A program made the position numbers and the translations under genes. Shown here piece after piece: positions 1,002 through 58,398 of a stretch of DNA of 59,362 nucleotides. The notes beneath the pieces are model-generated. The model worked only from the letters and a program-made list of their open reading frames with translations, was not told where the DNA came from and did no database searches. This DNA is from a virus. Lineage: Duplodnaviria; Caudoviricetes. The stretch spans positions 1 through 59,362 of IMG/VR virus record IMGVR_UViG_3300018481_000024. One strand, 5' to 3'. How positions within the stretch are numbered: position 1 is the first letter of the stretch; each line of letters starts with the position of its first letter.

Positions 1002-1580
1002 ATGAGTCTTGTCAGCGTCCATATGCCAAGTTCGATGCTCGGTCAGGGCGGCGGAGGCGGCGGAGGTGGTGGAGTCAACGACCCGCACATCAACACGCTC
1101 TCTCCGAACACTCTGCCGGTGTCAGCGTCAGCCTCGACCATCACGGTCACCGGAACGCTGTTCGAAGCAGGTTCGGTGGTCGAGATCGCCCAGCAGGATC
1201 GTCCGACGACCTTCGTGTCGGCGACCTCGTTGACGGTCAGCTTCACCCCGGCCACCGCTGGGACGGTGAACTTCACCGTCCGCAACCCGAACGACGAGGA
1301 GTCCAACTCCGTCCCGTTCGTCATCACCGCCGCCGCAGGGGACCCGGAACCTGAGGCCGACACGACCTCAGGAAATGGCACCCCTCCAACCGAGGTGGTC
1401 CCCGGTGATCCGGGCGAGTTCCTCCCGAAGGGCTGCGCCGTCCCCGAGAACATCAGCGCACTGCGCGAGATCGAGCTGGAGATGGAGTCGCTCAAGAAGT
1501 GGAAGAAGGGTGAGCACGTCGCCATCGGAACGGGCAACGTCCACTGGGACGGCGAGGACTGGGCCAAGGGAATTGCCTGA
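1002..1580 (+). CDS. IPT/TIG (Ig-like) domain decoration protein
   Basis: PHINTLSPNTLPV..TITVTGTLFEAGSVV..TTFVSATSLTV..VRNP..SNSVPF matches the IPT/TIG pattern; C-terminal W..G.HV..HWDGEDW module. Confidence 0.75.
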   Translation: MSLVSVHMPSSMLGQGGGGGGGGGVNDPHINTLSPNTLPVSASASTITVTGTLFEAGSVVEIAQQDRPTTFVSATSLTVSFTPATAGTVNFTVRNPNDEESNSVPFVITAAAGDPEPEADTTSGNGTPPTEVVPGDPGEFLPKGCAVPENISALREIELEMESLKKWKKGEHVAIGTGNVHWDGEDWAKGIA

Positions 1581-1975
1581 TGTCCGAACCCGAGGAACGG
1601 TTGGCTGGCATCAAGGAGTTCGTGACGGGCGTCGAGAACTGGGCGGCTGACGACGGCCCGTTCGCCGACAACACCAACGGGGCCATCACGCCCCAGACGT
1701 TCCGTGACTTCGCCGCCGCCGTCGAGGATGCACTGACCCGTGTCCGCCTGTCATTGGGGATGCTCCTCGCCGAGATCTCCGAAGGTTCTGCGCCCACGCC
1801 ATTTCATCTCGATCCTGACAAGCCCGAGACGGGCTGGGTGGTACCGTCGAAGACGGTTCTGGATGCCTTGGAGTACGAAGGTGATCCATGGAGCACTGGT
1901 CAGTACATCCAACTGAAGAACGGTCGGTCCTACTTCTGGGATGGGTCGGCATGGGCTTCGGGTCAGAATGACTGA
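1580..1975 (+). CDS. Small virion decoration/fibre protein
   Basis: TGATG coupling; N-terminal ADNTNGAITPQTFRD; C-terminal WSTGQYIQL..YFWDGSAW module. Confidence 0.65.
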   Translation: MSEPEERLAGIKEFVTGVENWAADDGPFADNTNGAITPQTFRDFAAAVEDALTRVRLSLGMLLAEISEGSAPTPFHLDPDKPETGWVVPSKTVLDALEYEGDPWSTGQYIQLKNGRSYFWDGSAWASGQND

Positions 1976-1985
1976 GGAGTAATCC

Positions 1986-4239: not shown

Positions 4240-7200
4240 ATGTCCAAGAGCGATCATCTTGAAGATGAAGTCCTCCTATGGGTCACCGGGCAGGACAGCA
4301 CTCTCGGCCCCGGTGTCGACGGTCCGTACCTCGCCCTCTACACCGACATCCCTTCTGATGTCGGTGGCGGGACCGAGGTGGTGGGCAACGGCTACGCCCG
4401 CGTAAACACCGACGGCAAGTGGACCGAGCCGTTCGACGGGGCGGCGAGGAACCAGACAGAGGTCATATTTCCTGAGGCCACCGGAGCTTCAGGATTCGGG
4501 ACCCTCGTCGCCATCGGTCTGCTCGACGCCCCGGTGGGAGGCAACCTCCTCTACTGGACGACCATCCCCGCCACCTTCATCGATGACCAGCAGACGCCGA
4601 AGTTCCCGCCGGGAGCGCTCGTCATCATCGAGGATGCCGCCGAGATCCCGAGCGGCGATGAGGTGATCGTCTCCCCCACCGATCCGGGGATGGGGTACGA
4701 CCTCTGGTACAACCCGAACGAGCCGATCACGCTCCGGGTCAACAACGGCGGCGTGTGGGCAGAGATCCCGACCGTCGGTCCACAGGGTCCGACCGGCGCA
4801 ACCGGAGCTGACTCCACAGTCCCCGGTCCTGTCGGACCTCAGGGTGTGCAGGGCATCCAAGGCGTGAAGGGAGATACCGGAGACGTTGGACCTCAAGGTC
4901 CCATCGGCGCTACCGGTGCCACCGGAGCTGACTCGACCGTGCCGGGACCGCAGGGTCCTCAGGGTGACATCGGCCCGCAGGGTGCCACCGGAGCGACCGG
5001 TGCTGATTCGACCGTGCCCGGTCCCACCGGTCCTGAAGGTCCGCAGGGCGTCAAGGGCGACACCGGAGCAACGGGTGCTGATTCCACCGTGCCCGGTCCG
5101 ACGGGACCGACTGGCGCAACTGGTGCGACGGGTCCTGAAGGCCCGCAGGGCATCCAAGGCCCGATCGGAGCAACCGGAGCTGACTCAACCGTTCCCGGCC
5201 CCACCGGTCCCACCGGTCCCGAAGGTCCCGAAGGTCCCGAGGGGCCGGAAGGTCCGCAGGGCATTCAGGGTGAGATCGGCCCAGCCGGTCCTGCTGGTTC
5301 AGGTACTGGTGACGTACTCGGTCCTGCGGCATCTGTTGCCAATCAGTTGGCTGTGTATGCCGACACGACCGGCAAGACCATCACGAACTCTCCTGCCACT
5401 GCTGACCCTGTAACTGGCAACCTTCGTGCCCCGCGGTTGCTGCTCAACGACCCCACCAACACCAACACGCTCACGCTCACCACCGACGTTGATTATTCGG
5501 CTGATGCCACCCTGACCCTCCGCACCGCCACCACAGGCGGTCCGGTGTCGTTGCAGATCCTCGGCGATTCTCGGATCAATCAGGACATGCGGACCGCCGC
5601 TCAGCCGACGTTTACGAACGTCTCGGCGACTACCGCCGCTCCGACCGATCCGGCTCATCTGACCCGCAAGGACTACGTCGACACGGCTGTAGCGGGGGCT
5701 GGCGGAGAGTCGTACTGGACCGACGATGGTGCAGGTGGCATCGAGTACGTCGATGCCGATGGTCCTGCTGCCGTCGGTGTGGAGGGTGTCGGGACGGGTG
5801 CCCTCACCTTCTCGGTTGACGGTGCGGTGATGGGCGTCCTCAGTGCCGACACCGGAAAGTTTGCGTTCTGGAACAACGCCGGACATTTGGGCATGTCGAT
5901 CAACAAGGACACCGGACAGGTCCGCATCGGTACCAACGGATGTGCAACGGCGATGAAAGGCACCGTCTCCCTCTCGCTCGATCCGGTGGCTCCGCTGGAA
6001 GCGGCCACCAAGCAGTACGTCGACAACACGATCGCCAGCACCGTACCCACTCTGCCGCCCGAGTCCGATGCGAATCGGAACACGGTCTACGGCCTCCCCA
6101 CGCCGGATCCGGTTCCTGCCGGGGCTACCGACAACACTGTGTTTGGTTACGACCTTCTGAATCGCCTAACGACAGGTTACAAAAATGTCGCCGTGGGATC
6201 GTGGTCCCTCAGGTATGTGACCTCAGGATCTAAGAACATCGTCTCCGGTTGTGCTGCTGCATATAACACCACGACAGGAAGTGACAATGTAGTCATCGGA
6301 GATTCGTCCCTATATACCAATACGGTGGGGACTGGTAATATCGCTGTTGGGACCAATTCCCTATATACCAGTACCGGCGGCAACAATGTTGCTGTCGGCA
6401 AGGATGCTCTGAGGACGTTGGCGACTGGTGCCAACAACACCGCGGTTGGCTTCAATGCCCTGTTTACGGCTGACCTCGCCGCCGGTAGCAACACTGCGGT
6501 TGGTGCCAACTCCGGTCTGTATGGATCGTCCACCAATGCCAGCTTCACAGTTGCCGTTGGTAACAACGCCAAGGCTGCTCATGCTTCGACTGCGATCGGG
6601 ACCGGGGCTGAGGCTCGCGCCAACGGTTCGCTCGCGCTCGGTGATTCCGCCGTTGCCGTCAACAGCAACCAGTATGTGATCGGTTCAGCCCTCAAGAATG
6701 TTGAGATACCCGGCACCCTCACCGTGATCGGGAGCTACACCGGCTACGCCCATACCGTCCTCTCCACCGTGAACGTGGTTGACGGCTTCAACTGCGGCGC
6801 TACCGTTTCCACCTTCTTCGGCAAGGTGAAGTCACCACCAGCACCGACCGATGCGGATGACTTGACGAACAAGGCGTACGTCGACACCACGGTCGCCGCT
6901 GGCGCGCCAGAGTCCGACGCTCTGTGGAACACCGCCTTCGGCACCAGATCCATTCCGACTGGCATCGCTGGTCAGCGGAACACGGCGGTAGGTGACTCGG
7001 CACTCACAGTCGTAGCTGGTGGGCTGGGAAATACAGCGGTAGGTCAGTTGGCTGGGACTGCGATTACAACTGGTAACAACAATGTAGCTATTGGTTATCA
7101 GGCTCTGCGTACCTCAGACGCTGGAAGTAACAATGTTGCGGTTGGTACTTCTGCTTTGAAGGATTCAACTTCAGGACCGGGCGGCAATGTTGCCGTAGGT

Positions 7201-13160: not shown

Positions 13161-13216
13161 TTTCTGATTCCCGACAGGCGTCAGGAATCCTCAACTGCTT
13201 ATCTGCTGGAGCCGGA

Positions 13217-13669: not shown

Positions 13670-14483
13670 TCCCAAGTCGACGGTGATCTCCAATCCCGAC
13701 CCGGTCGACCACTCAGGATTCATCTTGGCCGAGGAGGAGGGACTCAAGAGGTACCTCGCGGGGTTGAAGGTCCCGACCACCACCCGAGGCGGCACCGTGA
13801 TCGAAGAGGTGCCGGTGTATTACCGGTTCGCCTCCTCGGAGCGACGGATCGAGTACCCGTACATCACGATCGATCTGCTGAACGTCTTCCCCGACTTCCA
13901 GAGGCTCTACTCGGTCATCAACGAGTGGGGGATGCCCTCGCGGTACGAGTGGGGCCATCAGCAGTACGCCGGGGACGGCTACTACTACCCGGATCAGTTC
14001 AAGGTGGACGATCCCGCCGACGAGGGGATGGTGGCCTCCACCGGGAACTTCATGGCCTACAAGCTCCGATTCCAGATCACCGTCTGGAGCCGGAACATCA
14101 CCCACGACCGGATCCTGATGTCCCACGTCTTCTCGGACCTCTTCCGGGTGGGTGGCTTCTTCGTGCCGACCGAGCCGGACGGGGTCTGGCATCGGTGCTT
14201 CCTTGAGGAGTGGGTCCAAGGGGACACGATCGAATCGATCGAAGCCACCAAGCGCATCCTCCGCAAGATCTACACCATCTCCATGGATACGGAGATGCCC
14301 GCTACGCGGGTGCAGCAGATCTCCAAGGTCCGCAAGATCCATGTGGACCTGTACGAGAAGTACCTGATGGACGAAGGTCAGGTTCTCGGTCCGCACGCCG
14401 ACGACAGTCCTCTTCACGATGACATGACGGTGGCTCACTGGACCCACACCGGACAGCCAGATGGCACGGTAGATACAACGTAA
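13656..14483 (+). CDS. Tail terminator/sheath stabiliser
   Basis: GGAGGA RBS; FILAEEEGLK..L.GLKV..VPVYYRF..YPYITIDL..FQITVWSR..HDR; immediately upstream of the sheath gene. Confidence 0.65.
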   Translation: MGLPDPKSTVISNPDPVDHSGFILAEEEGLKRYLAGLKVPTTTRGGTVIEEVPVYYRFASSERRIEYPYITIDLLNVFPDFQRLYSVINEWGMPSRYEWGHQQYAGDGYYYPDQFKVDDPADEGMVASTGNFMAYKLRFQITVWSRNITHDRILMSHVFSDLFRVGGFFVPTEPDGVWHRCFLEEWVQGDTIESIEATKRILRKIYTISMDTEMPATRVQQISKVRKIHVDLYEKYLMDEGQVLGPHADDSPLHDDMTVAHWTHTGQPDGTVDTT

Positions 14484-17457: not shown

Positions 17458-18282
17458 ATGGCTGATACCACCGAGCTACTTGACGTTCCCGACGACATCC
17501 CCGATGAGATGCGTCAACAGATACTGGGAGGCTCCCCGACCACCAGCTTCCCGGTCATGCGTGACCCCGAGGCCGGGACCACGGTCCTGCCCCGAGGGAT
17601 CAGGGATGACGCGGGAGCCTTCCACACCGATGTGGTGTTCCGAGAACTCAACGGACGCGATGAGGAGTACCTCTCCAAGTTCACCGACGAGTCGCAGTTG
17701 TTCGATGCCGTCATCGAACGAGGGGTTGACCGGGTCGGCTCGCTCTCCATCTCCGAGATGGGGCAGTCGGAAGCGAGCGCCCGTCTCAACTCCCTGCTGG
17801 TCGGGGAGCGGAACATCCTGTTCCTCGGAGTCCTGCGGTCCTCCTTCGGCAACGAGCGGAAGATCGACTGGCTCTGTATCGGCTGTGGTGCCGAGAACGA
17901 GACGACCGTCATGCTCGATGACGATCTGAAGGTGAACATTCCTGAGGGTCTGGGTGACTCACATTTTTACGTCGACTCCAAGGACCGGAAGATCCAGTGG
18001 CGTGGCCTGACCGGCTCGGACGCCACGTTGGTGAAGCCGACGATGAACGCCGGGATGCAGTCATCGACCATCCTCGCTCAGGTCATCACTGCGGTGGACG
18101 ACGAGATGGTGCTCAGCCCGGAGCGGTTCGTGGCCGACATGTTGATGCGGGACAGACGGAAGCTCATGGAGTTGGTGTCGGAGAACCAGCCGATCATCGA
18201 CACCGATGTCAGCGTCTCCTGTCCCTCTTGTGGAAGGGAGCAGACCAAGCCCCTCTCATGGGGTGAGCTGTTTCTCGTATAA
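17458..18282 (+). CDS. Tail assembly chaperone/baseplate hub assembly protein (T4 gp26-like, two CxxC)
   Basis: RELNGRDEEYL..LLVGER..L..LR..FG; CIGCG and CPSCG; lies between tube and tape measure. Confidence 0.8.
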   Translation: MADTTELLDVPDDIPDEMRQQILGGSPTTSFPVMRDPEAGTTVLPRGIRDDAGAFHTDVVFRELNGRDEEYLSKFTDESQLFDAVIERGVDRVGSLSISEMGQSEASARLNSLLVGERNILFLGVLRSSFGNERKIDWLCIGCGAENETTVMLDDDLKVNIPEGLGDSHFYVDSKDRKIQWRGLTGSDATLVKPTMNAGMQSSTILAQVITAVDDEMVLSPERFVADMLMRDRRKLMELVSENQPIIDTDVSVSCPSCGREQTKPLSWGELFLV

Positions 18283-37002: not shown

Positions 37003-38264
37003 AGGGCGCTCGCCGGGTGTCCGGTTGACGATCCGCCGTTCCCGCTGGGGTCGAGGACGGCCAGCAGACCAGCATCGCCACGGTCGACCTCGGAGATGTC
37101 GCCGTTCACCCAGTCGACCTTGACGTAGGCGAGGGTCGGGACGCCGGATCTCATGGCGAGGATCTCGATCTCGACATAGTCCCCGCCGAGGCGACGGAGT
37201 CCCAGCAGCACGTCACTGTCCTGAGCGTAGGAGGACGAGTAGCCGCCCGAGTACATGTTGAGCTTCCCCCGCACCGTCTTGCTCATCAGGCTCTGGGTCG
37301 AGGCGACGACCGGGATCTCCCGCTCCATGGCGAGTTCCTTGAGGCCACGGGTGATGTTGGTGATGGCCCGAGGGGAGCCGGACGGCTCTCCCTGCTCGTC
37401 GGTCATCATGTAGATGCCGTCCACGATGATCAGGTCCGGTTCGAACGTGGTGTGCAGTCCCCGGAGCTTGGTGATGGTGTCGATCTCCCGGCGGGTGTCG
37501 ATGATGCGGGCACCCTCCAAGGTTCGGAGACGACGGATCTCCGCTCCGACCCGGTCCCGTTCCTTCTTGGTCAGCGACCCCTCCCTGAGGGCGGTCAGGT
37601 CGACTTCGAAGGCGAGCGAGACGTACATCCGCAGCAGCTCGTCGGTGGTCATTTCGAACGAGCAGAACAGGATGTTCCGACCGGCGATCTTGGCGGCGTA
37701 CATCATCTTGACCAGCGCCGTGGTCTTGCCCTGCTTGGCGAGGGCGGTGAGGGTGATCAACTGACCGGGCTGCCAGCCGCTGGTGGCCTTGTCGAGGGAG
37801 GGCAGGCCGAAGGGTATTCCCTGAGTCCGCTGCCGCCTCAGGATTTCAGCACTGTTGGCAACGGCGTGGGGGTGGATGTCGGTGCTCTCGGCGACGGAGC
37901 CGAAGCGGTACTTCTGCTGGACCTCCGTCGCGATGATGCCGTTGACGTGGGCGTTGAACTCGCCGTCGTTGATGGCGACGGTGATCCGTTCGATCAACTC
38001 GTCCTGCGCCCTCGTCTCAACGAGGTGGCCGAGGTACACCGACAGCGGCTGGGTCGCCTCGACCGGCTGCCAGTTCGGGTACACCGTGTGGATGATGGTC
38101 AGGTCCGTGAGTGGTCCGTACTCGATCATTTTCCTGAATATGTTCAGGTGTATGGATTTACGGAAGACATCCTCGTGGATGCTGGCGTCGAGCAGATCCA
38201 GCACTCGGCTCTGGGTGATGGCTGCGCTCAGGACGAGCGCCTCGTAGTCGGTGGTCTGGTCCAT
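36999..38264 (-). CDS. dnaB: Replicative DnaB-like helicase
   Basis: G.QPGQLI.L.ALAKQGKT; SFEM; LIIVDGIYMM; LK.LA.E..IPVV..Q; QDSDV; start set at ATG 38264, not the ORF-track start. Confidence 0.92.
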   Translation of the reverse strand: MDQTTDYEALVLSAAITQSRVLDLLDASIHEDVFRKSIHLNIFRKMIEYGPLTDLTIIHTVYPNWQPVEATQPLSVYLGHLVETRAQDELIERITVAINDGEFNAHVNGIIATEVQQKYRFGSVAESTDIHPHAVANSAEILRRQRTQGIPFGLPSLDKATSGWQPGQLITLTALAKQGKTTALVKMMYAAKIAGRNILFCSFEMTTDELLRMYVSLAFEVDLTALREGSLTKKERDRVGAEIRRLRTLEGARIIDTRREIDTITKLRGLHTTFEPDLIIVDGIYMMTDEQGEPSGSPRAITNITRGLKELAMEREIPVVASTQSLMSKTVRGKLNMYSGGYSSSYAQDSDVLLGLRRLGGDYVEIEILAMRSGVPTLAYVKVDWVNGDISEVDRGDAGLLAVLDPSGNGGSSTGHPASAL

Positions 38265-40712: not shown

Positions 40713-40868
40713 CAACCTTCTCCCTTCGAACAGGTGAGGGTCGACCGTAACAGGACCGTCGCTTCGTGCGGCGGTCCTGTTGCGTTGTGGGGCTGCTTTT
40801 TTCCTGAGTCCCTGAAGTCTCAGGTTTCCAATGGTGTATCTGTCACAAGATGGTATATAGTCTTGTAC

Positions 40869-42279: not shown

Positions 42280-42325
42280 ATACCTGAGGGACCCGGAATC
42301 TCAGGAATATCCCTGCTGGGGATCT

Positions 42326-42878: not shown

Positions 42879-43277
42879 ATGGATGAGGCGGACAGCACAT
42901 CGCTTCCCACCTTGAGTGGGGCTGTTCGTATCATTCAGGTGTCCGAGGGTGAGCCGGGTCCCGCCCCCCGCTCCCCTCGGACGCCTTTCTCGGAGATGCC
43001 GTTGAAGGTCGCCATCGGCGACTTCCTCCGCACCGCCGTCGTCGGTCGGTACCCGGTGTCCGCCGACGAGGAGTGGACGCTGATCCGCCTGACCCAGCAG
43101 CAGATACACCATGTCGCTGACTCCTACGACCGGCTGCTCGCGGAGAAGGACGCCTTCCAGCGGAAGTCGGAGAAGGTGACCGAAGTCCTCACCCTCCTCC
43201 GTCGGTCGAACACCCGGAAGAACCGGGAGTGGAACGATGCGATTGACACCGTGGCGAAATCACTGGATGAAATCTGA
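42879..43277 (+). CDS. Hypothetical protein
   Basis: GAGG RBS; coiled-coil C-terminus. Confidence 0.5.
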   Translation: MDEADSTSLPTLSGAVRIIQVSEGEPGPAPRSPRTPFSEMPLKVAIGDFLRTAVVGRYPVSADEEWTLIRLTQQQIHHVADSYDRLLAEKDAFQRKSEKVTEVLTLLRRSNTRKNREWNDAIDTVAKSLDEI

Positions 43278-43304
43278 CGGCTCAGGACACTCAGGATCGC
43301 CGCT

Positions 43305-44043: not shown

Positions 44044-45174
44044 ATGGACATGACACCACGGCCCTACGAGTTCATCATCGTCAGCGACGGTGACCCAGAC
44101 CACCTTCCACCGAAGGTCTTTGCCGAGGCACTCGCCGAGTTCGCGGAGATCACCAAGGGAGCCACCCTCATCGATGATGACGGCAACTCCGTCCCGACGA
44201 TGGACGTGAGCTTCCTCCCCTTCGCCACCGACGTTCTCCCCAAGCGGATCCTGACCGACATCGCTGCCATCTGCGGCAACGACCACGTCAGGGCGTACTC
44301 GTACTCCTACGGGGACACGCTGCCGTCGAAGGATGTGCGGGCCACCATGCCGCACCAGTTCGAATGGCCGGACGAGTACGGCGATGACATCGAAGTGGAT
44401 GGCCGGGAACAGGTCATCCTTCTGGCGGCTGGACATGACCTCGACCACGAAGCGCGCACCTTCATCGAGGAGGCGCTACAGCGGGGCCATCAGATCCTTG
44501 TCATCGATGAGGGTCTGTGGCAGTTGGACGCCATCACAGAACTGGAGCAACCCATGTCCGAGATCGACACCATGCAGGCGGAACTCGACGCCCTGACCGC
44601 CAGCGAGGAGGCGACACCCGAACCTTCGAAGGTCAGGACGAAGGTGAAGACGCCTCAGCCGGTGCCCGACAACGTGGCCGTCACCATCCCCTCGGTCGTG
44701 CAGAGCATCGATGAGGTCGACCCGGTCGATCCCAACTTCGGTGTCACCGCCGAGGACGACGCACCGATGGTGCCCGAGCAGATCCCGGTCACCCCCGCTG
44801 GTGAGCACGACGGCCAGCAGGGCGAGCACACCGGCCCGCCGCTCAACCCCGAGTGGGAAGCCATGGGTCGGAACGAACTGCGCGACCTCGTCAAGGAGAA
44901 GGGGCTGCACCCCACCGACTTCCGGTCGAAGCAGAGCCTGCTGGACTGTCTCTACGGACGGCCCGCCACGGTGAAGCCCCAGCGGCGCAGTCCCCTCAAG
45001 AAGAAGCAGGACGAGGTCGAGGCCATGACGGCCATGGACGCCGAGATCCCCGCCATCATCAAGGCGCTCAAGGGCGTGCTGGAAGAGCAGCAGGGCACGC
45101 TCGACAACCAGCAGGTGGTGCTGGCGAAGCTGGAAGCCCTGCTCACCATCGGTGAACGAGTGGGTGAATCCTGA
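44044..45174 (+). CDS. Hypothetical protein with C-terminal HeH/Rho-N-like nucleic-acid-binding module and coiled coil
   Basis: GGAG RBS; WEAMGRNELRDLVKEKGL.....SKQSLLDCL. Confidence 0.6.
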   Translation: MDMTPRPYEFIIVSDGDPDHLPPKVFAEALAEFAEITKGATLIDDDGNSVPTMDVSFLPFATDVLPKRILTDIAAICGNDHVRAYSYSYGDTLPSKDVRATMPHQFEWPDEYGDDIEVDGREQVILLAAGHDLDHEARTFIEEALQRGHQILVIDEGLWQLDAITELEQPMSEIDTMQAELDALTASEEATPEPSKVRTKVKTPQPVPDNVAVTIPSVVQSIDEVDPVDPNFGVTAEDDAPMVPEQIPVTPAGEHDGQQGEHTGPPLNPEWEAMGRNELRDLVKEKGLHPTDFRSKQSLLDCLYGRPATVKPQRRSPLKKKQDEVEAMTAMDAEIPAIIKALKGVLEEQQGTLDNQQVVLAKLEALLTIGERVGES

Positions 45175-45198
45175 CGGTTCTCCATACTCAGGATCTAT

Positions 45199-45264: not shown

Positions 45265-46824
45265 ATGCCTGAACTTCGCTCCTACCAGCTTGAGGCCGCG
45301 GGGCTTGCCCAGCAGCGGGGCAGCCTCCTCCTCGGACTCATCATGGGCAGCGGCAAGAGTGCCGTCGCCATCGAAGCGGTGAAGCGCCGACGTGCCCGCC
45401 GGAAGACCACCCGAGGGTCGATCGTCTGTCCGGTCAGCCTCAAGTACCAGTGGGCCGAGGAGATCAAGAAGTGGGATCCCGGTGCCTCCATCGTCGTGGT
45501 GGACGGCACCAAGGGACAGCGCACGGCCCAGTATCAGATCGAAGCCGACTACACGATCCTCGGGTACTCCAACATCCAGCACGACTGGGACGAGGTGCGG
45601 AAGTACCTCCCGACCGACTTCATGATTCTGGATGAGTGCAGCGCCATCAAGGGCTTGAAGACCCAGCGGTCGAAGCGTCTCAAGGCCATGGCCTCCAAGG
45701 TCAGCCTCCGCATGGCGCTGACCGGCACGCCCACCGAGAACCGGCCCGAGGAACTGTTCTCCATCATGGAGTGGGTGGACCCCACCGTGTTCGGGGACTT
45801 CCGCAAGTTCGACCGGGTGTTCATCGTGCGGGACAACTGGGGCAAGCCCGTTCGGTACCACAACCTGAACCGGCTCCATGAGCTACTCGGCGACGCCATG
45901 TACAGGAAGTCCCGAAAGGATTTGGAGGAGTTCCTGCCCGAGCGGGTGTTCACCCAGATCCCGCTCCACTACCCCTACCCCAAGACTCAGGCGATCATCG
46001 AGTACGTCGCCCACGACATCATCCGGGTGATGGACCAGCACGCCGAGCAGCCCGGTGGTCAGTTCGACATCTCCGAGCACTACGGGATGTCCACGAAGGA
46101 CGACAAGGGCAACCGGCTCAAGGGTGAGGTGATGCGTCGGGTCAACGCCATGCGCCTCCTGCTGGATCACCCCGACCTCCTCGCGTGGTCCGCCGACAAC
46201 TACGAGGACGAATCCACCAACGACGGGTCGGAGTACTGCTACAGCCTCCTGACCAACCCGGCCCTGTCCGAACCGGAGCCGAACTCGGCGAAGCTCGACC
46301 TGTTGCTGGAGCACCTGACCGAGGTCTTCGACGGTGACCCCGATGCCAAGGTGGTTGTGTTCGCATCGTTCAAGCCGATGGTCCGCATCATCGGGGCAGC
46401 GCTCAAGGCCCGAGGGTGGGGCTTCGTCTCCATGACCGGAGACACCGCAGCGGCCACCCGGCAGAAGAGGATCGTCGCCTTCAACAAGTCCTCCAAGGTC
46501 AGGGTGTTCCTCTCCACCGACGCTGGTGCCTACGGCGTGAACCTCGACAGCGGCACCCACCTCATCAACTACGACTTCCCGTGGTCGGCGGGTGTGTTCG
46601 CCCAGCGCCGTGCCCGGATCGACCGGACCTCCACAGCTCACCGCACCATATTCGTGAGCGATCTGTTCCATCAGGATTCAGTAGAGGCTTACCAACTCCT
46701 GATGCTGGAGCACAAGCAGGACGTGGCCGATGCGTGGATCGATGACGGTGAGGTGGAGACGCTCAACGTCGATCTGGATAATCTCAGGAAATATCTGGAG
46801 AAGGCGTATCTAGGGATTGCGTAG
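45265..46824 (+). CDS. SNF2-family (SF2) helicase
   Basis: LRSYQ; MGSGKS; ILDECS; LTGTP.EN...EL; STDAG..GVNL; QR.ARIDR. Confidence 0.93.
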   Translation: MPELRSYQLEAAGLAQQRGSLLLGLIMGSGKSAVAIEAVKRRRARRKTTRGSIVCPVSLKYQWAEEIKKWDPGASIVVVDGTKGQRTAQYQIEADYTILGYSNIQHDWDEVRKYLPTDFMILDECSAIKGLKTQRSKRLKAMASKVSLRMALTGTPTENRPEELFSIMEWVDPTVFGDFRKFDRVFIVRDNWGKPVRYHNLNRLHELLGDAMYRKSRKDLEEFLPERVFTQIPLHYPYPKTQAIIEYVAHDIIRVMDQHAEQPGGQFDISEHYGMSTKDDKGNRLKGEVMRRVNAMRLLLDHPDLLAWSADNYEDESTNDGSEYCYSLLTNPALSEPEPNSAKLDLLLEHLTEVFDGDPDAKVVVFASFKPMVRIIGAALKARGWGFVSMTGDTAAATRQKRIVAFNKSSKVRVFLSTDAGAYGVNLDSGTHLINYDFPWSAGVFAQRRARIDRTSTAHRTIFVSDLFHQDSVEAYQLLMLEHKQDVADAWIDDGEVETLNVDLDNLRKYLEKAYLGIA

Positions 46825-48049: not shown

Positions 48050-48528
48050 TGCCCGACCCGGTCGAGGATCTGTTCGGTGACTTGATGGATAACCCTGAGT
48101 CTGGAGAGGCTCAGGATTATCCCGGTCGTCGGAAGCCTGCGAACCGGCCCGACAAGAAGACGGCCACCGATACTGTCACACCCCCTTGGGATGATCGTCC
48201 CCTACACCTTGTCCACAAGGGTCAGGTGAGGGAGTGGTTCACGATCAGGCACCTCGCGAAGGCGCTGGGTCGCAAGGAGGTCACCATTCGTTCATGGGAG
48301 AAAAAGGGCAGGATGCCACAGACCCCGTTCCGAACCGCACCACCGAGGGGTTCCAACCTCGCGCAGGCGGCGGGGCGGCGGCTGTGGACCCGTGAGCAGA
48401 TCGAAGGCATCGTCCAGATCGCCGAAGAAGAGAAAGTCATCGTTGACATGAAGCAGTCACCGCCAACGGATCGGTTCGCCATCCGGGTGGCTCGGTTGTT
48501 CGCAGAGATCAAGGCCAAGGAGGTCTGA
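48046..48528 (+). CDS. MerR-like HTH DNA-binding protein
   Basis: FTIRHLAKALGRKEVTIRSWEKKG.MP..PFR....RRLWTREQI. Confidence 0.8.
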   Translation: MMPDPVEDLFGDLMDNPESGEAQDYPGRRKPANRPDKKTATDTVTPPWDDRPLHLVHKGQVREWFTIRHLAKALGRKEVTIRSWEKKGRMPQTPFRTAPPRGSNLAQAAGRRLWTREQIEGIVQIAEEEKVIVDMKQSPPTDRFAIRVARLFAEIKAKEV

Positions 48529-48531
48529 CCA

Positions 48532-49428: not shown

Positions 49429-49429
49429 G

Positions 49430-51451
49430 GTGTATCTACACCCGCACCTGATGCGCTCAGAGGAGGCGCTGGACCCGATGGTCCAGCGCCTTCTTCGCGC
49501 TCCGTACGTCGTGCTCGACGTGGAAACCGACGGCCTCGACACCACCAACAACTCGGTGATCTGGGTCGGCCTCGCCGCTCCCGGCCAGCGCCACGTCATC
49601 CCGCTCGGTCACCCTCTCGGGTTCTGCACCGAGCCTGCCCACGTCATCGAGGAGGACGACCTCTCGACGGTGCGGCCCTTCAAGAACAACCCCACCCGGT
49701 TCACCAAGCCGAAGAAGAAGCGGGTGAAGATCCCGGCGAAGTTCTCCGAGCCGCCGGTAGATCAGTTGCGACCCGACATCGTGTTCGCCGCGTTGAAGCC
49801 CCTGCTGTTCGATCCCGAGCGGATCATCGTCGGCCACAACGTGAAGTTCGATCTCCTGTCGGTGGCGAAGTACTACGGCGGGCAGATCCCGACGGCCCAT
49901 CCCCACGACACGATGATCCTCGCCCACATCCTCAACGAGAATCAGGCTGCCTACGACCTCAAGACCCTGACCACCAACTGGCTGCTCGGTCCGAAGGCCA
50001 CGCCCGAGAGGAAGGCGGAGTTCTACCCGGCGCTCGCCAAGGGCGGGATCATGGACAAGCCCTTCGACGCCATCGCCGAGTACCTGTGCCGGGACATCAC
50101 CTACACGATGTGGTTGTACCGCCGGTACATGAAGCGGCTCACCCCGAAGTTCCGTGACGTGTTCGAACTGGAGTCGGACACCCAGCAGGTGATCATGGAG
50201 ATGGAGCAGGTGGGGGTCCGGGTGGACCTGAGTGTCATACGAAACCTGACTACCAAGGTGGCTCAGGAAAGAGACGCCCTGATCCAGTCCATCTACGACG
50301 AGGCCGGTCGGGAGTTCAACATCGCCAGCGTCCCCGAGAAGGTGGCGCTCCTGTTCGGCTCCAAGGACGAGGGCGGCATGGGACTGGAGCCGGTGAGCTT
50401 CACCAAGAAGAACCAGCCTCAGGTCAACAAGGCCGTGATGCAGGCGCTGGCCGACGACGGTGTCGACATCGCCGAGATGCTCATGGAGTACGGCGAGCTG
50501 GACAAGATCCTGAACTCGTTCCTCGTCCCGTACGAGGAGGAGTTCGTCAACCCCACCACCCACCGGGTCCACCCCTCCTTCTGGCAGCACCGGGCGAGAA
50601 CGGCACGGCTCACCTCGTCGGAGCCGAACATCCAGCAGATCCCGGTGCGGACCGAACTGGGCCGGATGTTCCGTCGGTCCTTCACCGCTCCACCCGGTGG
50701 CGTCCTCGTCACGGTCGACTACGACCAGATCGAACTGCGCTGCACCGCCCACCTCTCGCGGGACAAGGCGATGCGGACGATCTTCATCCTCGGCGAGGAC
50801 ATCCACGCCCGGTCAGCGGCCAACGCCTTCACCATCTCCATCGAGAAGGTCACGCCGGAGCAGCGTGCCAACGGGAAGACCTTCTCGTTCGCCGTGCTCT
50901 ACGGGGCGTCCCCGAAGAAGGTGGCGAAGACGATCGGTCGTCCGATCAAGACCACCGAGAAGTTGCTGGAGGAGTTCTACAAGGGCTTCCCGGCGCTGGA
51001 GAGGTGGAAGCGGGAGGTGCTGGCGTCAGCGGTCCGCAAGGGTGACCCCAACATCCGAGGGGCTGACCCCTACGTCGAGATCCCCCCGTATGGACGACGA
51101 CGCCGACTGCCCGATCTGTGGTCTGGGGACACCAGCGAGTTGTGGAGGGCACAACGACAGGCCGTCAACGCCGTCGTCCAAGGGTTCGCATCCTGCATCA
51201 TGAAAGAGGCGATGGTGTTGACGGCGGATGAACTCCGCCGATCGGGTCTGGCTGCCCGGATCGTCGTACAGGTCCACGACGAAGTGGTGGTCGAAGTGGA
51301 TAACGTGTGTGACGCTGAAGCGGTGCTGGCCCTCGTGGTGAAGTGCATGGAGTCGATCACCGATCAGCACGGGGATCCGATCCTCGGAGACGTGCCACTG
51401 ATTGCCAGCGGAGGCTTCGGGCCGACGTGGGTTGATGCGAAGGACCACTGA
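49430..51451 (+). CDS. polA: DNA polymerase family A with 3'-5' exonuclease
   Basis: ExoI DVETDG, ExoII GHNVKFD, ExoIII YLCRD; motif A DYDQIELR, motif B R..GKTFSFAVLYG, motif C VHDE; start set at GTG 49430. Confidence 0.95.
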   Translation: MYLHPHLMRSEEALDPMVQRLLRAPYVVLDVETDGLDTTNNSVIWVGLAAPGQRHVIPLGHPLGFCTEPAHVIEEDDLSTVRPFKNNPTRFTKPKKKRVKIPAKFSEPPVDQLRPDIVFAALKPLLFDPERIIVGHNVKFDLLSVAKYYGGQIPTAHPHDTMILAHILNENQAAYDLKTLTTNWLLGPKATPERKAEFYPALAKGGIMDKPFDAIAEYLCRDITYTMWLYRRYMKRLTPKFRDVFELESDTQQVIMEMEQVGVRVDLSVIRNLTTKVAQERDALIQSIYDEAGREFNIASVPEKVALLFGSKDEGGMGLEPVSFTKKNQPQVNKAVMQALADDGVDIAEMLMEYGELDKILNSFLVPYEEEFVNPTTHRVHPSFWQHRARTARLTSSEPNIQQIPVRTELGRMFRRSFTAPPGGVLVTVDYDQIELRCTAHLSRDKAMRTIFILGEDIHARSAANAFTISIEKVTPEQRANGKTFSFAVLYGASPKKVAKTIGRPIKTTEKLLEEFYKGFPALERWKREVLASAVRKGDPNIRGADPYVEIPPYGRRRRLPDLWSGDTSELWRAQRQAVNAVVQGFASCIMKEAMVLTADELRRSGLAARIVVQVHDEVVVEVDNVCDAEAVLALVVKCMESITDQHGDPILGDVPLIASGGFGPTWVDAKDH

Positions 51452-51841: not shown

Positions 51842-51860
51842 CGTTCTCTACGGAGTGAAC

Positions 51861-53128: not shown

Positions 53129-53142
53129 TACACTGGTGACTC

Positions 53143-53743: not shown

Positions 53744-54738
53744 GCGCCACAGCAGTAGAGAAACTGCGGGCGACACATAGCAGCAAACCCGATGGGCCGA
53801 TTCTTCTGCCCATCATCGAACGGCACGTCATGAAGGCCAGCGCCGGTCGGGACGAGGACCGGGATATCGCCCACCTCCACCCCTCCGAGATGGTGAAGGA
53901 CGACTGGTGCCCCCAGCGGAGCTACTTCCGCATCATGGATGCGGAGAAGGAAACGACGGACGCCAATCCGAGTTTCCGAATGCAGTCGGCGTTCGCCAGC
54001 GGCCATGACGCCCACAAGAAGTGGCAGCGGTGGCTCAGCGAGATGGGCATCCTCTGGGGCAAGTGGAAGTGCGGGTGCGACTCCACGGTCATGGGTGCCT
54101 TCACCCCGTTCGACCGGTGCCGGGTCTGCATGGAGAAGTGGCGCTACGTCGAGGTCCCCTTCGAAGACGAGGAGTACCTCATCTGGGGACACGCCGACGG
54201 CCTCGTCATCCTCAACGCCGGGGGCAGCTACCTCATCGAGATCAAGACCATCGGCATCGGCACGCTCCGGTTCGAAGCTCCCATCCTGTACGAGAAGCTC
54301 CAGAACGGTGTGCTCACCGTCGATCAGGTGTGGTCGGCCATCCGCAAGCCGTTCGCCTCCCACCGGATGCAGGCCCAGTTCTATCTGTGGCTGTTGCAGC
54401 GCCAATATCCTGAGTTCGCCAACGTCTCAGAAATGCTGTTCATCTACGAGTGGAAGCCCGACGGCGCGGTGAAGGAGTTCCGCATCGGAGCCACCGAGTC
54501 GGTCATCGCTCCCAAGCTGGAGCTGGCTCGCGAGGTAGCCAACCACGTCAACCACGGCATCCAGTACCGTGAGCGCCCCGACTGGGCAGCGCCCGACGGT
54601 CATGTCTGTTCGTCGTGTGAGTACCGGAGCATTTGCTGGGACATTGTGGAGGTAGACGATGGTGCAACGCCGACGGGTGTCTCGGTTCGACGTTCGACTG
54701 GGCGGGGTGGGAAGCGGACCCGCGTGGCAGCAGCCTGA
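53728..54738 (+). CDS. Cas4/RecB-like PD-(D/E)XK exonuclease with Fe-S/Zn cysteines
   Basis: HPSE..WCP; G...H; GHADG; IEIKT; Q...Y; C..C.Y...CW. Confidence 0.85.
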   Translation: MRRTLSATAVEKLRATHSSKPDGPILLPIIERHVMKASAGRDEDRDIAHLHPSEMVKDDWCPQRSYFRIMDAEKETTDANPSFRMQSAFASGHDAHKKWQRWLSEMGILWGKWKCGCDSTVMGAFTPFDRCRVCMEKWRYVEVPFEDEEYLIWGHADGLVILNAGGSYLIEIKTIGIGTLRFEAPILYEKLQNGVLTVDQVWSAIRKPFASHRMQAQFYLWLLQRQYPEFANVSEMLFIYEWKPDGAVKEFRIGATESVIAPKLELAREVANHVNHGIQYRERPDWAAPDGHVCSSCEYRSICWDIVEVDDGATPTGVSVRRSTGRGGKRTRVAAA

Positions 54739-55126: not shown

Positions 55127-55566
55127 TGGCATCACGGGGGAAGGGTGCCCTCGACCGGGGGAAGACCGCCGAGCGGAAGGTCGTTGAGTTCCTGAAGACG
55201 GTGCGACTCAGGAATGTCCGACGCCTGAAGGCGGGCGAGTTCACGGACAAGGCCGACATCATGTTCGACGGTTCCGTCTGGCATATAGACGTGAAGAGCC
55301 GGAACACAATCGCCATTCAGGCATGGTGGCGGGAGATCAGGGTCGAGGCCGAGGCTCTCAAGCTGAAGCCCATGTTGATTATCCACTTCCCCGGTGAGGG
55401 GAGCGCAGCGCATTGGCTCTGTATCACAGAACTCCAAGATGCGAACATCGGATGGACCGGCCAGTTACACTCAGCGTTGGCCGAGCCACCGATCGGGAAC
55501 GTACATGACGGACACAGTGATAGAGCCTCGGGCGGAGGTCATCCTCAAGGTCAGCTCCAACTCTGA
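55126..55566 (+). CDS. Second Holliday junction resolvase-like nuclease
   Basis: RG..AER.VV..L.....R..AG...DK.DI......IDVK. Confidence 0.75.
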   Translation: MASRGKGALDRGKTAERKVVEFLKTVRLRNVRRLKAGEFTDKADIMFDGSVWHIDVKSRNTIAIQAWWREIRVEAEALKLKPMLIIHFPGEGSAAHWLCITELQDANIGWTGQLHSALAEPPIGNVHDGHSDRASGGGHPQGQLQL

Positions 55567-55801
55567 CCCCCACGCCGTCAGCGCAGCCATCTTCCGTTCC
55601 ATCTTCGACAGCCTCACCTTCCCGACGGTGCGCGCCATAGGCCACGGTGCCATCGGTCAGGCCACCAAGAGCATCGCCATCGCACGAGGCAACATCGCTG
55701 TGCGTGGCATCGACCTGTCGTGCAACATCGGGTTCGAAACCATCACTGGATCGTCCGGTGATCAGATCTCCTCGATGGTGTTTCGTCTATTCCCGAGATG
55801 A
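55505..55801 (+). CDS. spoVS: SpoVS-family protein (Alba-like fold)
   Basis: [44 protein letters not shown]...F parallels B. subtilis SpoVS ILKVSAKS.PNSVAGAL..IQAIGAGALNQAVKAVAIARG. Confidence 0.88.
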
Positions 55802-58398
55802 CCCAGACCACTTTCGGAGGCGTCTATGAGGCGCAAGTGGTTACCGATAATGGGGATAATCTGCGCCTTGTTGTTCCTCAGGTATTTGGCGACACGCAGA
55901 TCACCTGTACAAGATGGCTCGGATCTACTCGTCCCACCGCCAGTGAACGGGGATACGTTTCCTTCATCGGCGGCGACGCTGCTTGGCCGGTCTGGATGGT
56001 TGTCGCAGCCGGAAGCGGCATTATCTCCAATGGGTCGACGGGGGGCACGGACGAGGTATGGACCGGTCCCGATGAACCCGGAGCTGAACTAGAGCTTTGG
56101 ATTGACACCACCACCAATCCAGCCATTCTCAAGTCTCAGATAAACGGTGTATGGACGATTGTCCCGACCCGAGGTCCCCAAGGTCTGCGGGGACCCACCG
56201 GTCACACGGGTGCAGATGGTCCCCAAGGTCCACCCGGCCCGACGGGTGCTACTGGTCAGACCGGAGCGGCCTCCACCGTGCCCGGTCCTCCCGGCGCGAC
56301 TGGTCCTGCTGGTCCCAAGGGTGACACGGGGGCTGCCTCGACAGTTCCCGGTCCTCCCGGTGCGACCGGACCGACAGGTCCCAAGGGTGATACCGGTGCC
56401 GCCTCGACAGTCCCCGGTCCCCAAGGACCGAAGGGCGATACCGGAACCACCGGAGCAACAGGAGCTGCCGGTCCAGTAGGCCCGGAAGGCCCGGAAGGCC
56501 CGGAAGGACCCAAGGGCGACACCGGCACTGGCGTGACCATGAAGGGCACGGTCACGACCCCACCCACCGGGACGCTCATCCCGCCGGGTGTCACTGACGC
56601 CGGTACCCCAGCAGATATCGGCGACTCGGTCGTCATCCAAGGGTCGGCCATCCCCGAGGAGAACTCTCACCTCTGGACATATACCGATATGGCTGGTGTA
56701 TGGACCGACATGGGGAAGCTCCAAGGTCCCGAAGGTCCACCCGGTGAGGACGCTGTACTTCCGCCCGAGACTGATGCGTTGGGCAACACCAGCTACGGCA
56801 TCAGCACCCTTGAAGTCGTCACGACCGGCGGGAAGAACTCGGCGCTGGGCCAGTTGGCTCTCGCAGCGGTGACCACGTCGAACAACAACGTCGCCGTCGG
56901 TTATCAGGCGTTGACCGCGGTGACCACGGGCCTGAACAACACGGCGGTCGGTTACCAGACAGGTCGCAACCTGACGACCGGAGGGGCGAACACCGCTGTC
57001 GGTTACGGTGCGATGAGTGGCACCGCTGCGGGGAGCACGGCGATCACGGCTGTTGGTCAGAGTGCCCTCAACAGGGTGACGGGAGCGAGCAACACGGCTC
57101 TCGGTGCCAACACCTCGTACATGCTCACGTCGGCGACGGGGAGCACGGCGGTCGGTACGTCGGCGCTGTACGCGCCGAAGGGTGTAGCCGGTAACGCCAC
57201 CACCACTGCCATCAACCACACGGCCTTGGGGTTCCAGACGGGAGCGTATTCGTCGCTGACGGGTGGCAACATCCTCGCTGTCGGGGTGAACGCCATCGCC
57301 CACACCGATGGCACGGCGCTCGGTATGGGCACCGAGGCACGAGGTGTTGGGTCGACGGCGCTCGGCTTCGGAGCCATCGCCGAACTCGACTACCTCATCA
57401 GGCTCGGCGGAACGTCGATCACGAAGCTCGCGACGTACGCACCGACGATGGAGTTTCAGTACGGACCGGGAGCAGCGGCGTACACCAACTCGATAGTCAA
57501 CGTGCATTCGGGTACGTCGGCGAACCACGCGATGCTGTTCAAGCTGCGGTCGAACAGCATCGAGAAGACGCTGATGGAGTTGATCCACGACGGTCGGGTG
57601 AAGTTCCCGAACGGGCAGGCGTCCTTCGGCGTGACCCACACCCTCCCGCCGCCGGGGCAGCTACAGATCGGGCAGGCCACGCAGGGTGCTACGGCGCTGT
57701 CGATGGGAATGCCCGCCGACTACGGCTACCGGCTCGACATCAACACGACGTGGAGCGGCACGACCCCCGAAGCCAACTGGGCTGAGTTCAAGATCTGGTC
57801 GATGGCCCAGCCCGGTCTGTCGGTGATGAAGATCGTCGGCACTGGTTACCTTGAACTGGCGCGTGACCCGATCAGCCCGATGGGTGCTGCAACCAAGCAG
57901 TACGTCGACACGGCGGTCGCCGGGGCTACCGGTACCGAAGAGGTGGCGGTAGGACCGGACGATCCCGGCGGCACCTTCGACATCTGGTACGACACGGATG
58001 ATGTAGCTCCTCCGTTTCCCTCGATGTGGTCTGAACCCGGCACCCTGACGAGGCCGACAACGGGAGCCGCCATCGACACGACGTGGGGCCAAGCCGTCCA
58101 CGACAAGGTGTTCGCGAAACCCGTCATGGTTCACGCGGCCTACACGGCTGTCACCAACGGGGCAGGATCGTTCACGGTGCCCATAGCGTCGTTCGCTCCC
58201 GGCCTGTCAACGGTCACCGGGTGGGTCACCGATTGCTATGCGAACGACCCTAATAAATACCTGAGGGTCACCACGGCTCGTAAAACGACGGAGACATGGG
58301 AATGTGTCTTCGAGTGGTCGACCGGTGTCGGCGGTTGGAACTTGCTCACCGGTTGGGGCTGCACCCTGTATGTCATCGCGTGGGGGACACCGGCATGA
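55798..58398 (+). CDS. Gp5/gpV-type OB-fold spike domain fused to collagen, YadA-like head and fibre modules
   Basis: N-terminal [12 protein letters not shown]...[12 protein letters not shown]....[13 protein letters not shown]; Gly-X-Y run; NTA(V/L)G repeats; ATKQYVD. Confidence 0.75.

Follow-up and report, generated by a model that had tools for sequence, protein, structure and literature searches.

Dispersed short repeats have been described in several groups of mycobacteriophages, and the closest published analogue of the element reported here is the 17-bp dyad repeat of Cluster O, TGTTCGG-N3-CCGAACA (PMC4351075). Among the 34 copies in phage Corndog, 14 are intergenic, about 10 are near the 5' ends of genes and 11 are clearly intragenic (PMC4351075). 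The repeat is described as absent from host genomes and from other phages, and the authors suggest a dimeric protein and doubt a transcriptional role (PMC4351075). No explanation of its function later than that 2015 publication was found in open-access full text. Here we describe a dispersed split dyad, CCTGAG-N10/11-CTCAGG, in the IMG/VR record IMGVR_UViG_3300018481_000024, a linear virus entry of 59,362 bp (Duplodnaviria; Caudoviricetes), which was analysed at its full length and is referred to below as the window. According to our analysis, this motif is a real feature of the genome and is clearly under selection, and the selection acts at the DNA level, over coding sequence. The motif was not found described in open-access full text, where its two hexamers match primers only.

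The two repeats share several properties. Both consist of many dyads dispersed in an actinophage genome, both occupy a mixture of intergenic and intragenic positions, host genomes are essentially without the motif in both cases, and in Cluster O, too, the intergenic copies are concentrated in one genome arm. However, their anatomy differs: the 7-bp arms of the Cluster O repeat are contiguous with a 3-bp A/T spacer, are invariant and have G/C-rich flanks, whereas here 9-bp half-sites enclose an unread, G/C-rich spacer of 10–11 bp, the flanks are A/T and belong to the site, and half of the copies are degenerate. The sequences are different as well, since the top dyads of the window are CTGAG-N11-CTCAG and CCTGA-N13-TCAGG. 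The original prediction, made from the sequence alone, had likened the motif to mycobacteriophage stoperators. This comparison stands as far as many copies of one site across a phage genome are concerned, but it does not extend to anatomy: the stoperators of Cluster A are asymmetric and are bound by a monomeric repressor using two domains (PMC9283540), whereas the present site is symmetric and split. The Cluster A repressors (L5 gp71-type) are reported to stop elongation at many dispersed sites remote from the main promoter, in addition to affecting initiation (PMC9283540; PMC6550527), and stoperators belong to temperate phages and serve immunity.

The motif is enriched against both kinds of shuffle. 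Ten perfect copies of CCTGA-N12/13-TCAGG are present in the window (a spacer of N12/13 between the pentamers CCTGA and TCAGG equals N10/11 between the hexamers), at 1350, 4471, 25773, 37820, 40803, 42283, 45170, 48094, 50245 and 55191, all of them where the original prediction had placed its ten perfect cores; an eleventh pentamer match at 14363 was excluded because its spacer is wrong (N10 between pentamers). The broader pattern CCTGA-N10..14-TCAGG was observed 11 times; in 100 dinucleotide shuffles it averaged 0.71 matches and never exceeded 3. The codon-preserving shuffle that had been proposed as a check gave the same outcome: in 1000 synonymous-codon shuffles, which permute codons within each gene, keep the proteins and the per-gene codon usage and leave intergenic DNA unchanged, the mean was 2.54 and the maximum 5, against 10 copies observed. 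The spacer lengths are not evenly distributed either, as the pentamer pair occurs four times at N12, six times at N13 and 0–2 times at all other spacers from N0 to N40. In an unbiased scan of all 5-mer dyads with spacers of 0–30, the motif ranked first and second (CTGAG-N11-CTCAG with 5 copies versus 0.06 expected, and CCTGA-N13-TCAGG with 6 versus 0.30), and the exact 12-base dyad has 5 copies in the 59 kb of the phage. Other enriched dyads, GGTCC/GGACC and ACCGG/CCGGT, came mostly from collagen-like Gly-Pro repeats in two fibre genes; these Gly-X-Y repeats (4790-5210 and 56170-56430) are the source of most spurious enriched dyads, and besides the motif no non-collagen dyad was enriched in the window.

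When a weight matrix was trained on nothing but the ten perfect copies (20 half-sites), it found 19 sites scoring at least 14 bits, compared with a mean of 0.12 and a maximum of 3 in 200 codon-block shuffle runs, and nine of these 19 sites lie outside the training set. All six copies that had been proposed with one mismatch (13163, 13695, 30425, 43273, 46653 and 54409) reached at least 14 bits. Of the four copies proposed as weaker, those at 17941 and 55860 did so too, while those at 10461 and 58260 scored about 9 bits and are not clearly above background, the null mean for matrix matches of at least 10 bits being 0.83. The match at 38133 (15.0 bits) was added as a doubtful nineteenth site. 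Measured between hexamers, the spacer is N11 in 15 of the 19 sites and N10 in four, and spacers of 4–9 and 12–20 give 0–2 matches each; thus, the fixed length of 10–11 nt is borne out, and with it the free sequence of the spacer, since the spacer sequences are unrelated and G/C-rich.

The whole site can be written as A-W-T-CCTGAG-N10/11-CTCAGG-A-W-T and measures 28–29 bp. The alignment of 34 half-sites from 17 sites, made from the outside inward, gave the half-site consensus r-A-W-T-C-C-T-G-A-G-k-c. The A/T character of the flanks, noticed originally, is strict at position -2, which is A or T in all 34 half-sites and in 20/20 half-sites of the perfect copies, although the latter were selected without regard to flanks. 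The centres of the two 9-bp half-sites are 19–20 bp apart, about two helical turns, so both half-sites face the same side of the helix. The sites at 25773 and 46653, in the baseplate J and SNF2 genes, also share an identical run of 13 bases outward from the right half-site (25789-25807 and 46670-46688), CAGGATTCAGTAG, which goes beyond the consensus. The two genes are unrelated, and the shared run could be coincidental or could represent an extended form of the site.

Since its 6-bp arms can pair and three sites are located at gene 3' ends, before terminator-like hairpins, the palindrome might fold into a hairpin, either in RNA or in single-stranded DNA, that would terminate transcription, mark a processing site or signal priming. 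We consider this explanation extremely unlikely in view of how the copies vary. Over the 19 sites, 91 arm positions have the consensus pair and 23 depart from it; the departures comprise 16 one-sided breaks, five one-sided G-T wobbles, one position broken on both sides and a single compensated change. The flank positions are complementary in 26/57 cases, though both sides are almost always A/T. A 6-bp stem with a loop of 10–11 nt is weak (mean site fold energy of -8.2 kcal/mol versus -5.9, sd 3.1, for random 29-mers), no T-run that would give a U-tract follows the stem, and no Rfam family matched in the window. Because the departures are uncompensated and the A/T flanks do not pair, the selected feature is the double-stranded sequence and not a hairpin. 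The presence of A/T without complementarity is what readout of a narrow minor groove by shape would be expected to produce. The sites are therefore very probably protein-binding sites on duplex DNA, judging from their sequence pattern, and the reading of the original prediction, a dimeric protein that contacts both half-sites, remains the best supported one, being suggested by the conserved half-sites, the uncompensated departures, the non-complementary A/T flanks and the fixed spacer of free sequence.

The phage that carries the motif belongs to an uncultured lineage. The record has a CheckV completeness of 61%, so about 39% of the genome is absent from it, and the negative statements on gene content given below cover only this 61% complete fragment. 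The window has a GC content of 62% and is approximately 97% coding by the gene list used (3.2% non-coding). It includes a myovirus gene set with a tail sheath (14527-16803), a tail tube, a baseplate hub and a baseplate-wedge (J-like) gene (25227-26801), as well as tail-fibre genes, some with collagen-like repeats. A leftward replication operon encodes a DnaB-like helicase (36999-38264) and a DnaG-like primase (36100-37002), and a rightward block encodes an SNF2 helicase, DNA polymerase I, RecA, two PD-(D/E)XK-type nucleases and a SpoVS homologue. No tRNA gene was found. At the nucleotide level, no relatives were found among 50,697 phage records. By protein, the window comes closest, among cultured phages, to the Streptomyces myoviruses BRock, GiJojo, LuckySocke, Alone3 and pSt2308, with an identity of about 29–30% for the polymerase and 32–35% for a MerR-like protein, and the gene order beside polA is common to them. 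The host of the phage is probably an actinomycete, because these nearest cultured relatives infect Streptomyces. BRock is described as virulent and without lysogeny genes (PMC7453282), and a scan of 57 window proteins against Pfam or PHROGs brought up no integrase or immunity repressor family. Parts of the window are present in five soil or sediment sequencing runs from five studies, and the lineage is widespread. Strains diverged by 2–10% over 40001-59362 were found in soil and freshwater-sediment metagenomes (runs X1–X4), and identical pieces were found in one run.

Fourteen of the 19 sites are intragenic. The perfect core at 1350..1372 (N11; 27.9 bits) is located in a linker of the IPT/TIG-domain gene 1002-1580, in the frame CCT GAG, and the site at 4471..4493 (N11, right hexamer TTCAGG; 32.6 bits) is in the fibre-like gene 4240-8514, about 230 nt from its start. 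The best score, 34.2 bits, belongs to the site at 25773..25794 (N10, right hexamer TTCAGG) in the baseplate-wedge gene. Sites matching at all 12 positions are found at 37820..37842 (N11; 32.3 bits) in the minus-strand helicase gene 36999-38264 and at 48094..48115 (N10; 29.6 bits) in the N-terminal extension of the MerR-like gene 48046/48049-48528. The DNA polymerase I gene 49133-51451 has CCTGAC-N11-CTCAGG at 50245..50267 (24.1 bits), the PD-(D/E)XK exonuclease gene 53728-54738 has CCTGAG-N11-CTCAGA at 54409..54431 (23.8 bits), and the gene 55126-55566, which has a weak PDDEXK_15 match, has CCTGAA-N10-CTCAGG at 55191..55212, 65 nt from its start (28.8 bits). The degenerate intragenic copies are CCCGAC-N11-CTCAGG at 13695..13717 in the gene 13218-14483 (19.2 bits), CCTGAG-N11-CTCACA at 17941..17963 in the baseplate-hub-like gene 17458-18282 (18.0 bits), CCCGAG-N11-ATCAGG at 30425..30447, about 200 nt from the start of the gene 30225-32342 (18.6 bits), CGTGAG-N11-ATCAGG at 46653..46675 in the SNF2-helicase gene 45265-46824 (15.7 bits), TCTGCG-N11-CTCAGG at 55860..55882, 62 nt from the start of the collagen-like fibre gene 55798-58398 (15.6 bits), and the doubtful CCTGAA-N11-GTATGG at 38133..38155 in the helicase gene.

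These sites override the codon preference of the genes in which they lie, as had been noticed originally. In the half-sites of the 14 fully intragenic copies, A or T occupies 47/84 of the third codon positions, compared with 20% in the genome as a whole (binomial P = 8e-13). The intragenic sites use both non-stop frames, and the remaining frame, which reads TGA within CCTGA, occurs twice, in each case as the real stop codon of the upstream gene. All six of the sites compared with BRock homologues (in the polA, SNF2, baseplate J, DnaB, exonuclease and hub genes) align without an indel, and since the residues they encode align without insertion, these six sites arose by substitution. This history, together with the unrelated spacers, does not fit a mobile palindromic element (MITE, REP or RPE-like). 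Only the site at 48094, in the MerR-like gene, involved an insertion, of 8 codons. Phage genomes usually avoid palindromes, and a palindrome that is enriched about 30-fold and kept within genes against codon preference points to a strong and specific function.

The MerR-like gene offers a closer view of how a site may have been acquired. The left half-site and the spacer of 48094 fall within the 8-codon segment 48085-48108, which encodes D-N-P-E-S-G-E-A. The window protein shares this segment with relatives of 88%, 84% and 69% identity, and four relatives at 51–56% lack it. At the protein level, the three closer relatives keep the residues encoded by the half-sites, N-P-E or N-P-D and Q-D-Y, and the four-residue distance between them, while the spacer residues vary among the four proteins (SGEA, SDEV, SEAS and LPEG). 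N-P-D would match the CCTGAC variant that is also seen at 45170 and 50245. From this alignment, the site at 48094 looks like one gained via a small in-frame insertion in a disordered N-terminus. A similar picture was obtained for 37820, where the residues of both half-sites are kept in a helicase relative of 88% identity, with one spacer and one flank residue changed. The protein that carries the site at 1350 gave mostly TIG-domain-only matches in the homology search and no close full-length relative. In runs X1 and X3, contigs diverged by 2–10% cover seven sites (43273, 45170, 48094, 50245, 54409, 55191 and 55860); the 40 of 946 differences that were listed all fall outside the sites, a number too small for a statement on conservation.

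The distribution of the sites along the genome is uneven. The original prediction had spoken of a genome-wide lattice, which overstated their regularity: the distances between sites range irregularly from 669 to 9224 bases and thus describe a scatter. Twelve of the 19 sites lie within 36–56 kb, the early and replication region, and seven are in structural genes. Five sites fall in the 3.2% of non-coding DNA, so that five of the 12 gaps measuring 30 nt or more hold a site, and 6 of the 14 intragenic sites are within the first 15% of their gene. Four of the five non-coding sites start 0–3 nt from the upstream stop codon. Two of these follow the stop: the degenerate TCTGAT-N11-GTCAGG at 13163..13185 (20.3 bits) begins 2 nt past the stop 13158-13160 and lies upstream of the ATG at 13218, and the perfect 12/12 site at 42283..42305 (N11; 28.0 bits) begins 3 nt past the stop of the gene 42019-42279, upstream of a hairpin at 42377-42406. 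The other two contain it: in the degenerate TCTGAC-N11-CTCAGG at 43273..43295 (15.0 bits) the TGA is the stop of the gene 42879-43277, and in CCTGAC-N11-CTCAGG at 45170..45192 (26.6 bits) it is the stop of the gene 44044-45174, with a GC-rich hairpin (45203-45224) 10 nt downstream. G/C-rich hairpins are thus present downstream of 42283, 43273 and 45170. The fifth non-coding site, a perfect 12/12 copy at 40803..40824 (N10; 30.4 bits), occupies the divergent region between two replication-related operons, the leftward one running from 39990-40712 onward and the rightward one beginning with the ATG at 40869. For the gene 3' of the site at 13163, ATG 13218, with GGAG 5 nt upstream, is a likelier start than 13386, the start of the longer open reading frame.

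Promoter-like sequences accompany some of the non-coding sites. Downstream of 43273, at a distance of 9 nt, a consensus scan flagged TTGACC-16-TATGGT. By eye, a TTGCGA-17-TACCGT box can be placed 20 nt downstream of 42283, and a TATAGT box about 30 nt downstream of 40803, followed by the leaderless-looking ATG 40869. Two readings of the flanks as promoter elements were tried and given up: the flanks do not form the end of a -10 box, since positions -6 and -5 have no T/A preference, and a GGAAT -35 box of the extracytoplasmic function (ECF) type, suggested by eye, was dropped as no GTT is found at a fixed distance downstream. Two further features of the divergent region were seen. One is a 10-bp inverted repeat at 40748-40781, AACAGGACCG ... 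CGGTCCTGTT, followed by a T-run; the other is an A/T-rich stretch of about 45 bp just past the site (40825-40871), with a TATATAGT box immediately before ATG 40869. This stretch could be a leaderless start or an origin region.

Judging from the genomes searched and from protein alignments, the motif appears to be private to this phage and its near kin. Among IMG/VR records, 15 relatives of the sheath protein (26–48% identical) were found; the five of them searched as whole records (41–47% identical, 41–48% GC) had 0 motif matches, and unbiased dyad scans of three whole sheath-relative records and of the loci L131 and L138 revealed no such array. The helicase query had no IMG/VR relative, and a motif scan of IMG/VR gave, among the matches listed, single chance-like ones only. 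None of five metagenome loci found via the SNF2 protein (at most 36% identity) carried the motif, and an IMG/VR locus with a MerR homologue of 49% identity and a GC content of 64% had no copy within two mismatches. BRock has a single pentamer match, which is off consensus, and its matrix matches are not significantly enriched (7, 3, 1 and 0 matches at 10, 12, 14 and 16 bits, versus 2.3, 1.1, 0.4 and 0.2 expected).

Such restriction to one lineage fits a private phage factor, but it is also what a host-specific factor predicts, and a host protein was among the binders considered originally. The sites could then recruit or titrate a host transcription factor or nucleoid-associated protein, as phages do carry sites for host factors, e.g., NtcA sites in cyanophages and CtrA sites, and the search of the window gave no convincing phage-encoded binder. 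On the other hand, of 401 sampled genomes of Actinomycetes (the class of Nonomuraea), none has more than 3 copies of the exact 12-base dyad and 114/401 have any, whereas the reversed control pattern reaches 7 per genome and the phage has 5 copies in 59 kb. Two Nonomuraea genomes with distant helicase homologues have 0 and 3 copies. The 401 include four unpublished genomes (G032, G038, G044 and G051) with one match each, and the conclusion is independent of them. Thus, none of the sampled genomes is enriched for the motif, with the reservation that this evidence is weak since the true host may be unsampled; furthermore, sites for host factors are normally at promoters and not within coding sequence. 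Altogether, we regard a host factor as improbable.

Among the proteins of the window, the original prediction had put forward the MerR-like helix-turn-helix (HTH) protein as a binder. Its family assignment is sound: P0031 (48046..48528, plus strand, 160 aa) matches PHROGs 20793, 66 and 597, including the annotation 'excisionase and transcriptional regulator', many of its 73 homologues have a precomputed PF00376 or PF13411 assignment, the GiJojo homologue is annotated as MerR-like, and it is the only recognisable HTH protein in the window. Several homologues are on contigs of 107–136 kb, the size of BRock-like genomes. Its recognition region argues the other way, since the stretch FTI.HLA.AL.R..VTIRSWEKKG is nearly unchanged between relatives with and without the site-bearing segment, and BRock and the locus L161 encode homologues, yet are without the motif. 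A conserved reading head is a poor match for a motif private to one lineage, and this weakens P0031 as the binder. A published comparison is Gp36 of the lytic mycobacteriophage D29, a MerR-like protein which is reported to repress downstream phage genes from a specific site (PMC12266134). The window resembles D29 in encoding a small MerR-family protein; unlike the present case, where the MerR-like protein is probably not the binder, Gp36 binds GC-rich direct repeats. The arrangement of the sites does not suggest MerR operators either. In a MerR-type operator the dyad lies inside an over-long spacer of 19–20 bp between the -35 and -10 boxes, whereas here no site falls between promoter-like hexamers: four of the sites at gene junctions are upstream of -35-like boxes and the others are intragenic.

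A second protein, P0032 (39990..40712, minus strand), had been proposed as a winged-helix (wHTH) binder. It is encoded by the first gene of the leftward helicase-primase operon, which adjoins the site at 40803. The wHTH assignment was not confirmed: P0032 matched nothing in Pfam, in PHROGs or in the phage database, an exhaustive HMMER search of 1.84 billion representatives gave one full-length homologue with 44% identity, and the single-sequence AlphaFold2 (AF2) model is unusable (mean pLDDT 36). A protein language model gave leads to the HTH_36, Phage_rep_O and CodY-HTH clusters at 0.93–0.94, with 145–156 shared features, which is below the reliable level. P0032 is therefore a lineage-restricted candidate binder by position and phyletic pattern only. 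The third protein considered, SpoVS, does not track the motif, because BRock also encodes it (gp51, 'sporulation protein'). In the window, the SpoVS-family protein (55394-55801; Pfam E = 5e-16) is located between a nuclease gene and a fibre gene, and gp51 is its BRock counterpart.

The position of P0032 raises the question of replication. If its product were an initiator, the sites might represent one primary and several secondary origins, or serve to titrate the initiator as DnaA boxes do. The site at 40803 does adjoin both the P0032 gene and the A/T-rich stretch of about 45 bp, the sites are concentrated around replication genes, the leads for P0032 include Phage_rep_O, HTH_36 and DnaD_N-like clusters, and lambda O is known to bind dyad-symmetric iterons. 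Nevertheless, origins normally carry several adjacent initiator sites and no cluster of sites is present anywhere, seven sites are in structural genes, the language-model matches are below the level of a firm lead and the fold model adds nothing, which makes this explanation quite improbable. We consider it highly improbable that a site-specific nuclease, nickase or recombinase acts on the sites, as in T5-like programmed nicks or in breaks that start recombination-dependent replication. The window does encode RecA, the SNF2 helicase and the two PD-(D/E)XK-type nucleases, and a site of 28–29 bp with conserved 9-bp ends resembles the layout of the crossover sites of small serine recombinases. 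But a spacer of 10 or 11 bp without conserved central bases hardly suits a centre of recombination or cleavage, the window yielded no recombinase gene, and cutting at a symmetric site would mean double-strand breaks at about 19 places.

In the explanation that we favour, one sequence-specific protein would bind each site as a symmetric dimer, or as a pair of dimers, with each subunit reading a 9-bp half-site A-W-T-C-C-T-G-A-G and leaving the intervening 10–11 bp unread. The binder would most likely be encoded by the phage, either by the orphan gene 39990-40712, by a gene in the missing ~39% of the genome or, with less likelihood, by the MerR-like gene 48046. Together, the sites would constitute a dispersed network of operators through which a virulent phage sets its transcription programme. 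Where there is non-coding DNA, sites of the early and replication region stand at gene junctions, right after a stop codon, with a promoter-like box 9–20 bp downstream. At the intragenic sites, presumably written by point substitution, the bound protein could block or pause RNA polymerase, or could loop to the junction sites. Protein binding, a phage-encoded binder and an effect on transcription are all three inferred from the sequence, and to the combined proposal, a phage-encoded dimer acting through a dispersed operator network on transcription, we give about even credence.

A number of observations weigh against a transcriptional network. The consensus scan found 4 promoter-like sites versus 3.0 expected, with 43273 the only site flagged, the promoter assignments near 40803, 42283 and 45170 are putative and made by eye, and no promoter-like sequence was found beside the 14 intragenic sites. 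The distance from the site centre to the guessed transcription starts varies (about -55, -67, -55 and -82). The Cluster O authors used a similar argument from intragenic sites to doubt a transcriptional role (PMC4351075). A role in lysogenic immunity like that of stoperators is unlikely, because BRock is virulent. With regard to the binder, the MerR-like protein is a less likely candidate than originally ranked. The evidence for conservation in relatives of 69–88% identity is at the protein level only, and two sites are less well kept even there: at 38133, 4/10 of the coded residues differ in the 88% helicase relative, and the linker with the site at 1350 differs in a partial relative (84% over the TIG domain) and in a 57% relative.

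The main rival is an architectural role, in which the motif would be a private 'address' for a phage protein that organises, compacts, partitions or self-recognises phage DNA, with recruitment to a replication or packaging compartment, or the sparing of phage DNA from a nuclease, as possible purposes. Fourteen of the 19 sites are intragenic and not beside promoters, a placement typical of chromosome-organising sites, and the phage bears a codon cost for maintaining sites all along its genome. Candidate host genomes are practically free of the motif, so it could tell phage DNA from host DNA, and the doubt of the Cluster O authors concerning transcription points in the same direction (PMC4351075). 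At the same time, the 57 scanned proteins, from a record in which 39% of the genome is missing, include nothing like ParB, SMC or Noc, and the density of sites is threefold higher in the early and replication region, with a strong preference for intergenic DNA and gene starts, which a pure address does not predict. We see an architectural role as unlikely. Its more specific version, in which an address point-substituted into the phage's own genes at a codon cost and read by an orphan protein (e.g., that of 39990-40712) would mark or organise the chromosome for self-recognition, compartment recruitment or looping and would not consist of promoter operators, is likewise rather doubtful. Our preferred reading is still the operator network.

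The known chromosome-organising sites differ from the motif in form. The sites of parS, matS, Noc and SlmA are contiguous palindromes of 12–16 bp for dimers, often within genes and spread over tens to hundreds of kb; their carriers are bacterial chromosomes or plasmid prophages, and the binder gene is known in each case, whereas here the dyad is split. For parS in particular, a contiguous palindrome of about 16 bp goes together with a ParB gene, and neither that form nor a ParB family among the scanned proteins of the partial genome was found, the spacer of 10–11 bp being unread. Regulatory boxes of similar sequence are known as well: the LuxR-type box is CCTG-N10-CAGG and the HspR HAIR element is CTTGAGT-N7-ACTCAAG, but in the window CCTG and CAGG are 14–15 apart, the hexamers are 10–11 apart and no other spacer peak is seen. 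The repressor sites of Streptomyces phage phiC31 are contiguous 17-bp conserved inverted repeats (CIR), mostly intergenic, in a temperate phage; they resemble the present motif in being inverted-repeat sites in many copies over an actinophage genome.

The motif is a second, anatomically distinct case of dispersed dyads in actinophages, and the phenomenon may exceed one phage cluster. Since the site is short and the candidates are few, the question of the binder is approachable without culturing the phage, by means of synthetic DNA and proteins expressed cell-free. If the motif were indeed a private address, the unexplained function of the Cluster O repeat would become testable by analogy.

Two additional observations concern BRock. 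Its terminal repeats carry a split dyad of their own, CTATTC-N16-GAATAG (28 bp overall), with two copies per terminal repeat (L154 96-199 and L156 12398-12501) and none elsewhere in the genome, and this dyad is different from the motif of the window. BRock gp36 (L154 16036-17538) is a homologue of queuine tRNA-ribosyltransferase, whereas the 61%-complete window has none. Enzymes of this type are linked to 7-deazaguanine DNA modification in phages.

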